A DNA stretch of 63,144 bases, counting the filler, from Reclinomonas americana ATCC 50394 (taxonomy: Eukaryota): assembly GCA_048213135.1 (NCBI GenBank). It is 51 parts of 51 records of this genome, joined end to end, with 100 filler letters (N's around TTAATTAATTAA, not from the genome) between each part and the next. Parts side by side here need not be neighbours in the genome. Positions count along the whole stretch, not along the records: positions 49,663 to 50,800 come from AFZH01026355.1; positions 50,901 to 52,036 come from AFZH01026356.1; 49 more parts are not named here. One strand, written 5' to 3'. The translations under genes and the position numbers were made by a program. Below are positions 49,663 through 50,906 of the stretch, piece after piece; positions within the stretch are counted from its first letter, which is position 1, and each line of letters opens with the position of its first letter. A model generated the notes under the pieces. The model made no database searches, was not told where the DNA came from, and was given only the letters and a program-made list of their open reading frames with translations.

Positions 49663-50473
49663 AGCCCGCGCGCCGCCTTGCGACGGGCGCGGCGTCCCTG
49701 GCCGACTGCATGAACATGCTGCCGAAGCCGACATAGGTCGGCGGCTCGCCGGCATCGAGGAATGCCGTCAGCTCCGCTGGCAGGGGGCGCTCATCCGGCA
49801 GGATCCAGGCGCCGGTCTGGACGGCGTCGCAGAGCTCCGTCTGCCGCCAGGGCCAGAGAACCGGATCCGATGCCAGAAACGGCTTGTCCGTGAAGATGTG
49901 GTCGCGGGCATTATCGACCGGCGGCAGGCCGACCGAGGCGCGGTGTGCCGCGAGCGCCTCGCCGAACAGGGCATTCATGGTGCGGGCATTGAAGTCCCAC
50001 AATACGCGATGGTCGGTCACGTCCGGCGGCAGGGGATGGCCGGGATAGGGAAACGGCCGATGGTGGTGCGACGGCAGGAAGAGCGGACAGAATGTGACGT
50101 GGCGATAGGTGATGCCCATCAGTTCCGCGACCGACCGCGCCGCGCTCGCCGACGGGAACAGGCCGGTCGCGACGATCGCATCGCAGCCCACTGCCGCCAC
50201 CGAGATGGCGCCGAACTGCGCCGCCATCATGTCGGAGGCGAGCTTGTGGAAGTCTGCTGTCGAAGATGGCTTGGCCCGCTCGCTCACCCATTGGCGGATC
50301 GGCATGAAGGCCGGCGCGAGGGACACCCCCGCCCGCGCCAGCAGCTCGGCGAATTCCTGGTCCGGCGGGGCGGAGACCACGGCTTCGGCGCCAAGCTTCT
50401 GCAATTCAACAGCCAGCGCCACCAGCGGTTCGACATCGCCGCGCGAGCCGTAAGTCGATAACAAGACACGCAT
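49663..50473 (-). CDS. Bacterial GT1 glycosyltransferase of the GtfA/Rgt group; candidate rifamycin glycosyltransferase
   Basis: MRVLLSTYGSRGDVEPLVALA, DAIVATG, QTGAWILPDERPLPAELTAFLDAGEPPTYVGFGSM. RBS AGGGAG at 50481-50486 and an RAE-like element upstream. Confidence 0.85.
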
Positions 50474-50532
50474 TTTGCTACTCCCTTTGGCCTGGGGTTC
50501 AGGCCGAGGGCAGCGTTGCTAGGACATGGAGG

Positions 50533-50551
50533 GGGGCTTGCCGCAAGCCCC
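50533..50551. promoter_or_regulatory. RAE-like (rifamycin-associated element) 19-bp palindrome
   Basis: GGGGCTTGC-C-GCAAGCCCC, a perfect 9-bp inverted repeat 60 nt upstream of the glycosyltransferase ATG. Confidence 0.8.
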
Positions 50552-50580
50552 GGGGCGCGTTAGACGATGATAGTGGCAAG

Positions 50581-50607
50581 AGGCAGGGGCGTTCCCCTGC
50601 CTTTTTT
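50581..50607 (+). terminator. Intrinsic terminator
   Basis: AGGCAGGGG-CGTT-CCCCTGCCT hairpin followed by a T tract. Confidence 0.8.
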
Positions 50608-50906
50608 GTTGCCGCTGAAGCTCCTTGCGAGCTGGCGTTGCAACCTCCGGCGACCGCTTCGACCACTCCCGGCAGCACGGAGCGGGCGCGGTTCATCGCC
50701 GTCCTGAGGCTGTTGTCGCGGCACGACGTAAGCTGATTGCCTGAGAATGCCCTAGTCCTGGCCGGCGCCTTCATGGCCGGGCAGGCGCAGGCGGTAGACG
50801 NNNNNNNNNNNNNNNNNNNNNNNNNNNNNNNNNNNNNNNNNNNNTTAATTAATTAANNNNNNNNNNNNNNNNNNNNNNNNNNNNNNNNNNNNNNNNNNNN
50901 CATTCT

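Follow-up and report, generated by a model that had tools for sequence, protein, structure and literature searches.

How rifamycins are sensed at arr, helR, rox, rph and rgt in actinomycetes, including Mycobacterium abscessus, has been a question since the RAE was described in 2014, and in the available text of a January 2026 paper the mechanism of the RAE is still given as unknown (PMC12802891). Published RAE loci carry an identical 19-bp palindrome, which published accounts treat as the site of an unknown regulator accompanied by two sense-oriented promoters, and an opposite-strand -10 element, a GG start and a self-terminating hairpin go unmentioned in these accounts. In the literature on the RAE covered here, no opposite-strand promoter, terminator or small RNA is described. 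This study was concerned with an RAE copy that also lies upstream of an Rgt-like gene, in DNA of Reclinomonas americana ATCC 50394. The original prediction for this copy was that the palindrome doubles as back-to-back -35 boxes and drives a divergent mini-transcript of about 35 nt. The question raised by the locus is whether the palindrome is promoter architecture and not simply an operator.

On balance, we think it probable that the RAE serves two promoters as a common -35 region, within a compact and nearly mirror-symmetric two-way cassette that moves together with rifamycin-resistance genes. The evidence for the parts of this account, and for the alternatives to each part, is given below.

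Materials and Methods

The window, meaning the whole stretch of 63,144 nucleotides that was analyzed, consists of 51 pieces of about 1.1-1.2 kb and the 50 spacers that join them, each of the form N44-TTAATTAATTAA-N44. The RAE locus is on the piece at 49663-50800, which is 1138 nt long, has a G+C content of 67.5% and is bounded by N spacers at both ends.

An exact-RAE scan using one genome per species identified at least 105 loci. The oriented set (n = 82) was composed of 81 loci among the matches listed plus the window, each oriented by its adjoining resistance gene. A further 24 loci among the matches listed had no assignable gene and were left out of the oriented counts. The oriented loci were distributed over five gene groups as follows.

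Rox: 47 oriented loci among the matches listed, assigned on the basis of FAD_binding_3
HelR: 15 oriented loci among the matches listed; 14 of 14 tested match the NCBIfam HelR/HelD models
Rgt-like: 9 oriented loci among the matches listed, the window included
Rph: 8 oriented loci among the matches listed, assigned on the basis of PPDK_N
Arr: 3 oriented loci among the matches listed

These loci were gathered by the exact RAE and may share common descent. Selection is argued here because of the pattern of conserved versus free columns and not because of identity as such. In addition, 20 RAE variants with 1-2 mismatches were collected from genomes of the family of genome G001, in which 293 of 401 genomes (a tally that includes genome G072) have an RAE match. 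For the hairpin beside the RAE, a covariance model, R1, was built from six clean copies and used to search 100 sources.

Results

The RAE locus in the window

The RAE scan of the window returned a single match, and 0.03 matches are expected per shuffle when up to 3 mismatches are allowed. The palindrome and the gene next to it are as follows.

50533-50551, no strand: RAE, exact 19-bp palindrome GGGGCTTGCSGCAAGCCCC, the predicted -35 region of both promoters (motif match and family geometry)
49663-50473, minus strand: 5' part of an Rgt-like rifamycin glycosyltransferase gene, 270 codons, cut by the contig end (Pfam Glyco_transf_28; NCBIfam NF000354)
50482-50486, minus strand: Shine-Dalgarno sequence GGGAG, 8 nt 5' of the ATG at 50473 (read from the sequence)

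The reading frame starts with the ATG at 50473 and is open to the end of the piece over its 270 codons. The NCBIfam model NF000354 (glycotrans_Rgt) matches the frame with an E value of 1.9e-84, residues 1-265 corresponding to profile positions 1-262 of 411; the score is under the full-length cut-off because the gene is truncated. The encoded glycosyltransferase is 64% identical over 265 aa to the RAE-linked glycosyltransferase of locus L043. Its ATG is 60 nt from the RAE, and a distance of up to about 100 nt was taken to indicate an RAE-controlled locus.

The short strings from which the original prediction was assembled are all present in the positions it gave. TTGCCG (50538-50543) is followed on the plus strand, after 17 nt, by TAGACG (50561-50566), and the minus strand has TTGCGG (50546-50541) and TAGCAA (50521-50516); the predicted hairpin and T tract are also in place. 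A scan for sigma-70 consensus promoters on both strands of 50300-50800 found no promoter, and the hexamers of the window are degenerate. Therefore, the case for promoters is made from the comparison of the family and not from the window copy alone.

Conserved -10-like elements on both sides of the RAE

The flank of the RAE that is distal to the resistance gene has a distinct pattern of conserved and free columns. In the oriented loci among the matches listed, the conserved columns are T12 (89%), A13 (98%), T16 (70%), T17 (96%), G24 (89%) and G25 (91%), and any base occurs at positions 14-15. The hexamer TANNNT is found at distal offset 12 in 72 of these 82 loci and NANNNT in 78, and at any other offset from 1 to 40 TANNNT is found in at most 5 of 81 loci among the matches listed. 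After alignment, T17 is invariant in all 80 rows (among the matches listed). On the gene side, NANNNT is found at the mirror offset of 12 in 73 of 82 oriented loci among the matches listed, mostly as CAnAAT, and TANNNT in only 6. The RAE variants have the same layout, as all 20 carry TAnnnT in one flank (in one case shifted by 1 nt) and CAnnnT in the other. Exact RAE copies are also found outside the Actinobacteria, in genomes titled Myxococcota, Acidobacteriota, Chloroflexota, Pseudomonadota and others, and the distal element is kept in 20 of the 21 oriented loci with non-actinobacterial titles among the matches listed. The center base of the palindrome relative to the gene is G in 53 and C in 29 of the oriented loci among the matches listed, which is uninformative.

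The original prediction that the RAE lies between back-to-back promoters is supported by outward-facing -10-like elements at mirror offsets. Its choice of TAGACG as the -10 element, with a 17-nt spacer, is not; TANNNT occurs at offset 10 in none of the 82 loci, and the conserved register is 2 nt downstream with a spacer of 19 nt. On both sides, 19 bp separate the TTGCSG half-site from the -10 hexamer. The corresponding positions in the window are as follows.

50516-50521, minus strand: sense -10 position, TAGCAA versus CAnAAT in the family, with the A at -11 kept and the T at -7 lost (73 of 82 loci have NANNNT at proximal offset 12)
50563-50568, plus strand: divergent -10 position, GACGAT versus TAnnTT in the family, with G in place of the T at -12 and with the A at -11 and the T at -7 kept (72 of 82 loci have TANNNT at distal offset 12)
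50508-50510, minus strand: predicted start of the sense (rgt) transcript, proximal flank positions 23-25 (from the family alignment)
50575-50576, plus strand: predicted start of the divergent transcript, the conserved GG at distal flank positions 24-25 (from the family columns)

The cassette was defined by NANNNT 12 nt from each edge of the RAE. In the window, the far hexamer GACGAT agrees with NANNNT but has G at -12, the gene-side hexamer TAGCAA retains the A at -11 but lacks the T at -7, and the GG at 50575-50576 is followed by the hairpin and T tract. The positions of the starts are suggested by the family. In 7 of the 20 RAE variants an ATG occupies proximal flank positions 24-26, an arrangement typical of leaderless mRNAs, and the sense transcript would accordingly start 24 nt from the palindrome. 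By symmetry with the sense start, the far start would be the conserved GG. The center of the palindrome is about 33 bp from both predicted starts, and the RAE would therefore be the -35 region of both promoters.

It is very probable that the anatomy of the cassette is that of two outward-facing promoters on one -35 region, the far one of which makes an RNA consisting of hardly anything beyond a terminator. The resistance mRNA would begin about 24 nt from the palindrome, driven by a sub-optimal gene-side -10 element (CAnAAT in the family, 50521-50516 in the window). The far-side -10 element is near-consensus (TAnnTT in the family, 50563-50568 in the window) and would start a transcript at the GG (50575/6 in the window), and the first bases of this transcript would form the 5' arm of a GC-rich hairpin that is followed by a U tract. 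One observation counts against this two-way reading: all 19 of the 19 bp of the palindrome are conserved, which is more than sigma region 4 needs and is typical of a site for a dimeric DNA-binding protein.

The hairpin and the predicted divergent RNA

The original prediction also included a strong hairpin and T tract beside the RAE, and both were confirmed. These features are located as follows.

50580-50603, plus strand: stem-loop of 10 pairs with a 4-nt loop, and an outer helix of 50573-50579 with 50609-50615 (fold, terminator scan and model R1)
50602-50612, plus strand: T tract TTTTTTGTTG after the stem (sequence and terminator scan)

The window hairpin has a folding energy of -27.9 kcal/mol (z -5.7), which none of 200 shuffles equaled, and it is the best-folding of the 80 copies compared among the matches listed (z -5.8). 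The terminator scan lists it on the plus strand, where it has the GC-rich stem-loop and U tract of an intrinsic terminator; in the minus-strand reading the stem is followed by TCTTGCC and not by a U tract. The divergent product is thus predicted to be a self-terminating RNA of about 30-40 nt, and in the window of about 34-38 nt, ending at about 50610. This predicted length agrees with the mini-transcript of about 35 nt originally proposed.

An alignment of RAE-bearing upstream regions, originally proposed as a check on conservation of the distal -10 element and terminator, gave a partly positive answer. The -10 element is conserved, at offset 12 and not 10, and the hairpin covaries, but a hairpin with its 5' arm at distal flank positions 22-28 was detected in only 35 of 80 loci among the matches listed, with all five gene groups represented. 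The same detector found 0-10 hairpins in 20 dinucleotide-shuffle sets and 4 of 80 on the gene side. When each locus was folded with its own arms the energy was -17.1 kcal/mol, versus -15.2 kcal/mol with arms swapped between loci, and none of 2000 permutations did as well; the gene-side control gave 386 of 2000. The R1 search returned 71 matches at E values of 1e-6 or less, among which the window ranked 37 of 71 (53.7 bits, E 1.9e-11). In the R1 alignment of these 71 matches, which was fitted to the structure and leans towards it, 91.1% of cells pair versus 76.5% in shuffles. In the same structure-fitted alignment, double-sided changes occur in 96 cells versus 36 (0 of 500 shuffles) and affect 9 of the 10 pairs, and pairing falls to 54-69% when the partner is slid by 1-3 columns. 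A search of Rfam over the hairpin gave chance-level matches only (E 0.7-1.0).

An alternative explanation of these features is that the hairpin terminates or insulates the upstream gene, with the distal TAnnnT belonging to the sense promoter as an A/T-rich upstream element and not forming a promoter itself. The distal hexamer is at about -54 to -59 of the sense promoter, a region in which UP elements sit. In 30 of 62 loci among the matches listed, a Pfam-supported upstream gene reads towards the RAE, and in some loci the longest stop-free upstream frame ends within about 120 nt of the RAE. Thus, the hairpin could also, or instead, end the transcript of the upstream gene. We nevertheless consider this explanation unlikely for several reasons. 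First, the hairpin is found at a fixed distance from the RAE and with similar sequence beside unrelated upstream genes, and it therefore belongs to the cassette. Secondly, at least 5 T within the 9 nt after the hairpin are found in 16 of 35 cases in the reading that leads away from the gene, versus 0 of 35 in the opposite reading. Third, the conserved columns form TAnnnT with G or C allowed between, and not an A/T tract. Lastly, an orphan transcription start site (TSS) on the far strand has been published for M. smegmatis (PMC6448022; see below). The direction of the upstream gene made no clear difference: by a hand tally, 15 of the 30 loci whose upstream gene is co-directional have the hairpin, and so do 5 of the 13 whose neighbor is divergent. 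Wobble pairs also did not separate the strands. The model-fitted alignment has 50 G-U versus 16 A-C cells, but a strand-neutral detector gave 12 versus 7 (p 0.36) and favors neither strand, as the terminator explanation would allow. Because this strand-neutral result was not significant, wobble pairs were not counted as strand evidence.

It was further suggested originally that loss of the small RNA could act as the inducer. In this explanation, the tiny divergent RNA would be a short-lived regulator that represses the resistance mRNA by pairing, and less of it under rifamycin would lead to de-repression. The hairpin and a purine-rich 5' arm are conserved, and the 3' arm (CTCCTT type) resembles, in our own reading, an anti-Shine-Dalgarno sequence. 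However, pairing of the predicted RNA with the 5' region of its own locus gave -25.8 kcal/mol, no improvement on the -26.2 kcal/mol obtained with other loci, and 1615 of 2000 permutations equaled or surpassed the true assignment. The bases that might pair are, moreover, already engaged in the stem of the RNA itself. In addition, there is no matching Rfam family, and in the available text of PMC10719064 the induction of helD/helR is reported as transcriptional. A regulatory role of the RNA by pairing is very improbable.

RNA-library contigs (Logan) from four public runs (X15-X18) were also placed on the window; these contigs carry no start, end, strand or level information. The contigs of X15, a polyA RNA library, cover 49680-50525 and 50563-50800 plus about 840 nt beyond, and the bare stretch at 50526-50562 is not evidence regarding termination at the T tract. 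The whole of 49680-50800 is covered by one contig in X16. A 35-nt RNA is outside the reach of such libraries.

Published 5' ends in mycobacteria

Published TSSs at two mycobacterial genes, helD and arr, were compared with the predicted geometry. At M. smegmatis helD, the RAE is about 20 bp downstream of the P1 start and over the -35 of P2 (PMC10719064). The gene (MSMEG_2174) starts at 2250877, and its plus-strand TSSs are at 2250847 (P2) and 2250785 (P1) (Martini 2019 Table S2, PMC6448022). The same tables list an orphan minus-strand TSS at 2250780 in both data sets, with converted/non-converted ratios of 30 and 15.6 (PMC6448022). The distance from this orphan TSS to P2 is 67 bp, or 24+19+24, as the two-way geometry predicts, and the P2 TSS fits proximal flank position 24. 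The position of the RAE in M. smegmatis used here was derived from the wording of the review, "~20 bp downstream of P1" (PMC10719064). The orphan TSS is where the far start of the proposed mini-transcript would be expected.

Minus-strand starts that agree with this geometry are also listed at arr. In M. smegmatis (MSMEG_1221, start 1290581) a minus-strand TSS is found at 1290484, which is 97 nt before the ATG, a distance identical to that at helD, and the accessible tables contain no sense TSS for this gene in log phase (PMC6448022). For M. abscessus arr, a minus-strand TSS is listed 93 nt before the ATG (PMC4974804 supplement). The M. abscessus TSS table gives an identical upstream string for the first TSS of several two-TSS genes, apparently a table error (PMC4974804).

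The published data also contain a point against the two-way reading, as P1 (2250785), on the sense strand, is much stronger and only 5 nt from the orphan TSS (PMC6448022). The far promoter may be stronger than the sense promoter, as its better hexamer would suggest, but 5'-end coverage is about equal, at 41 and 56 for the orphan TSS and 42 and 65 for P2 (PMC6448022). We judge it highly likely that the divergent promoter and its mini-transcript are real and functional in the family.

Discussion

Comparison with known systems

The arrangement closest in its possible working is the helD/pps alarm of Bacillus subtilis. According to the available text of PMC12802891, rifampicin is sensed there by two interfering promoters without a regulator; the few polymerases that carry the drug become arrested preferentially at the busier antisense promoter, so that the sense promoter is released, and induction is lost in a resistant rpoB mutant. 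The RAE cassette likewise has two close promoters, one productive and one non-coding, before rifamycin-resistance genes. However, the B. subtilis promoters as described in that text are convergent, with 39 bp between starts and collision, whereas the RAE promoters are divergent with about 67 bp between predicted starts. The shared -35 region and the non-coding unit with its own terminator are also unlike the B. subtilis alarm. The collision logic is not transferable unchanged, because the RAE promoters are divergent and would compete for the palindrome. Thus, the RAE cassette is not a member of the B. subtilis type of alarm, although it may work similarly.

A second related case is the tandem rpoB promoters of M. 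smegmatis, where rifampicin raises expression by preferentially silencing an adjacent interfering promoter (Zhu 2018, as described in the accessible text of PMC10719064). These promoters, as described there, face the same way and have neither palindrome nor terminator, in which the RAE cassette differs.

The third comparison is with divergent promoters of the MerR type. Those promoters have over-long spacers of 19-20 bp, with the operator in the spacer between the -35 and -10 elements. The RAE cassette also has 19-bp spacers and divergent overlapping promoters around a palindrome, but the RAE covers the -35 itself. The neighbors of the RAE cassettes that were examined included no gene of the MerR family.

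Promoter competition or a dedicated regulator

Occupancy of one promoter would preclude that of the other, as each requires the same 6-9 central bp of the palindrome. The divergent unit may be a self-contained decoy promoter, and decoy traffic would set the basal state of the resistance promoter. The built-in terminator would keep the divergent transcript from an antisense run into the upstream gene. By analogy with B. subtilis helD/pps, induction by rifamycin may be a shift in promoter competition when part of the polymerase pool is drug-bound. Simple competition alone does not predict induction, because an arrested polymerase at the divergent promoter keeps the shared region occupied.

Whether RNA polymerase alone, without a dedicated regulator, is the rifamycin sensor can be answered only tentatively; we hold this to be possible, somewhat short of an even chance. 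In a broader proposal, which we offer as a conjecture that is real but less likely to be correct than not, the RAE cassette would be a horizontally portable sensor that needs no regulator, with RNA polymerase serving as the target of the drug and also as its detector. In such a sensor, the divergent promoter would only load, fire and release polymerase within about 35 nt, and the drug-bound fraction of polymerase would decide which promoter wins. This could come about through arrest at the busier promoter. In an alternative route, dinucleotides from abortive cycling at the GG start would stabilize a weak sense promoter that has a GC-rich discriminator. If true, a portable sensor would explain the failure so far to find an RAE-binding protein and the function of the cassette after transfer between phyla.

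The competing explanation is that the RAE is bound by a dedicated dimeric regulator, which switches on the resistance promoter in the presence of rifamycin; the divergent promoter would then be a by-product or be co-regulated, and polymerase would not be the sensor. The palindrome is a perfect one of 19 bp with all positions conserved, including the outer G/C runs outside any -35 hexamer, and positions 4 and 16 change together in many RAE variants of the G001 family; single-arm changes, however, are also common. Deletion of half of the RAE abolishes induction and does not give constitutive expression (PMC10719064 and the Hurst-Hess preprint, in their available text), a result that an activator site and a core promoter element explain equally well. 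An unknown regulator is favored in the accessible parts of the same two sources. Against such a regulator, the literature searched contains no report of an RAE-binding protein from 2014 onwards, and both -10 elements are kept in genomes titled Myxococcota, Acidobacteriota, Chloroflexota, Pseudomonadota and others. Also, no recurrent regulator family is found beside the cassettes, the Pfam-supported neighbors belonging to many unrelated families. A dedicated regulator is a credible possibility that we would not call probable, and we regard a dedicated RAE-binding protein as being as likely as a sensor made of polymerase only.

Significance

With the conserved divergent promoter and built-in terminator of the two-way cassette favored here, the question of sensing comes down to a small number of point mutations and a single in vitro transcription experiment. 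Should polymerase by itself be the sensor, targeting a regulator would not block induction, and the cassette would be a compact, host-independent rifamycin-responsive promoter. The presence of the cassette, including both -10 elements, in genomes titled Myxococcota, Acidobacteriota, Chloroflexota and Pseudomonadota shows that inducible rifamycin resistance has spread together with its control region beyond the Actinobacteria.

Composition of the window and ends of the RAE contig

The window (1-63144) is made up of 51 short contigs, each about 1.1-1.2 kb long, which are chained through 50 N44-TTAATTAATTAA-N44 spacers. The pieces are separate contigs joined by spacers, and therefore features on different pieces are not genomic neighbours. 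The contig that carries the RAE, the 19-bp palindrome found upstream of rifamycin-resistance genes, occupies positions 49663-50800. Near-identical copies of this contig, defined by the presence of at least half of its sampled words, are contained in 16 public runs. Copies were recorded in 20 rows from 17 studies, and the studies are labelled freshwater, marine, wastewater, silage, soil and tobacco, among others. The source organism either has a very wide distribution or is a frequent contaminant.

The first 21 nt of the contig (49663-49683) are found in the opposite orientation and at a different place in the RNA-run contigs covering 49680-50525, which then run on into other sequence; the left tip of the window's contig looks like an assembly artefact. 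At the right end lies a reading frame fragment that is too short for naming, which may represent the 3' end of a gene that lies upstream and is directed towards the RAE, as at many other loci.

50752-50800, minus strand: frame with high GC3, open to the contig end, stop at 50752-50754

RAE loci outside the Actinobacteria

The published accounts consulted describe the RAE as an actinobacterial element. Among the matches listed in the scan of one genome per species, 80 exact-RAE loci have a record title, and for at least 23 of them this title is non-actinobacterial (L006, L009, L011, L012, L018, L023-L025, L038, L043, L047-L050, L056, L057, L059, L061, L073, L075, L077, L078 and L080). The titles name Myxococcota, Acidobacteriota, Chloroflexota, Dormiibacterota, Verrucomicrobiota, Sphingomonas and Rhodanobacteraceae; assignment is by record title, and many of the records are MAGs, for which mis-binning is possible. 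The Myxococcota records include an isolate, Minicystis rosea DSM 24000.

Start sites and 5' UTR of the resistance mRNA

In the published M. smegmatis table (PMC6448022), position 2250785 of NC_008596 is a strong sense-strand start, helD P1, located only 5 nt from the orphan start on the opposite strand. The family consensus of the oriented RAE loci contains no -10 element fitting helD P1. This start may be particular to the species, or it may represent a processed end.

At most loci, positions 18-40 of the flank towards the resistance gene contain a GC-rich discriminator of the CGCCGGCC type, with which the 5' UTR opens, together with a small GGCCGAAGCC-type hairpin. This hairpin also looks to be kept between gene families.

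about 50490-50515, minus strand: window counterpart of the discriminator and small hairpin region

rgt stubs behind the cassette

Among the matches listed, 13 of the 73 loci with a non-glycosyltransferase resistance gene (Rox, HelR, Rph) have a stub of the rgt glycosyltransferase gene after the cassette, which comprises the RAE, its outward-facing -10 elements and the far-side hairpin and T tract. These loci are L003, L004, L020, L021, L029, L037, L046, L055, L063, L069, L081, L091 and L093. On the gene side, the stub lies 58-62 nt past the RAE, starts with MRV(L)LSTYG.RGDVEP and decays thereafter. In 11 of the 13 loci it ends after 14-95 codons, before the real resistance gene; the frame is open up to the end of the available DNA in L020 and L055. 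The cassette appears to be a copy taken from rgt along with the rgt 5' UTR and initial codons. The stub may function as a short upstream ORF.
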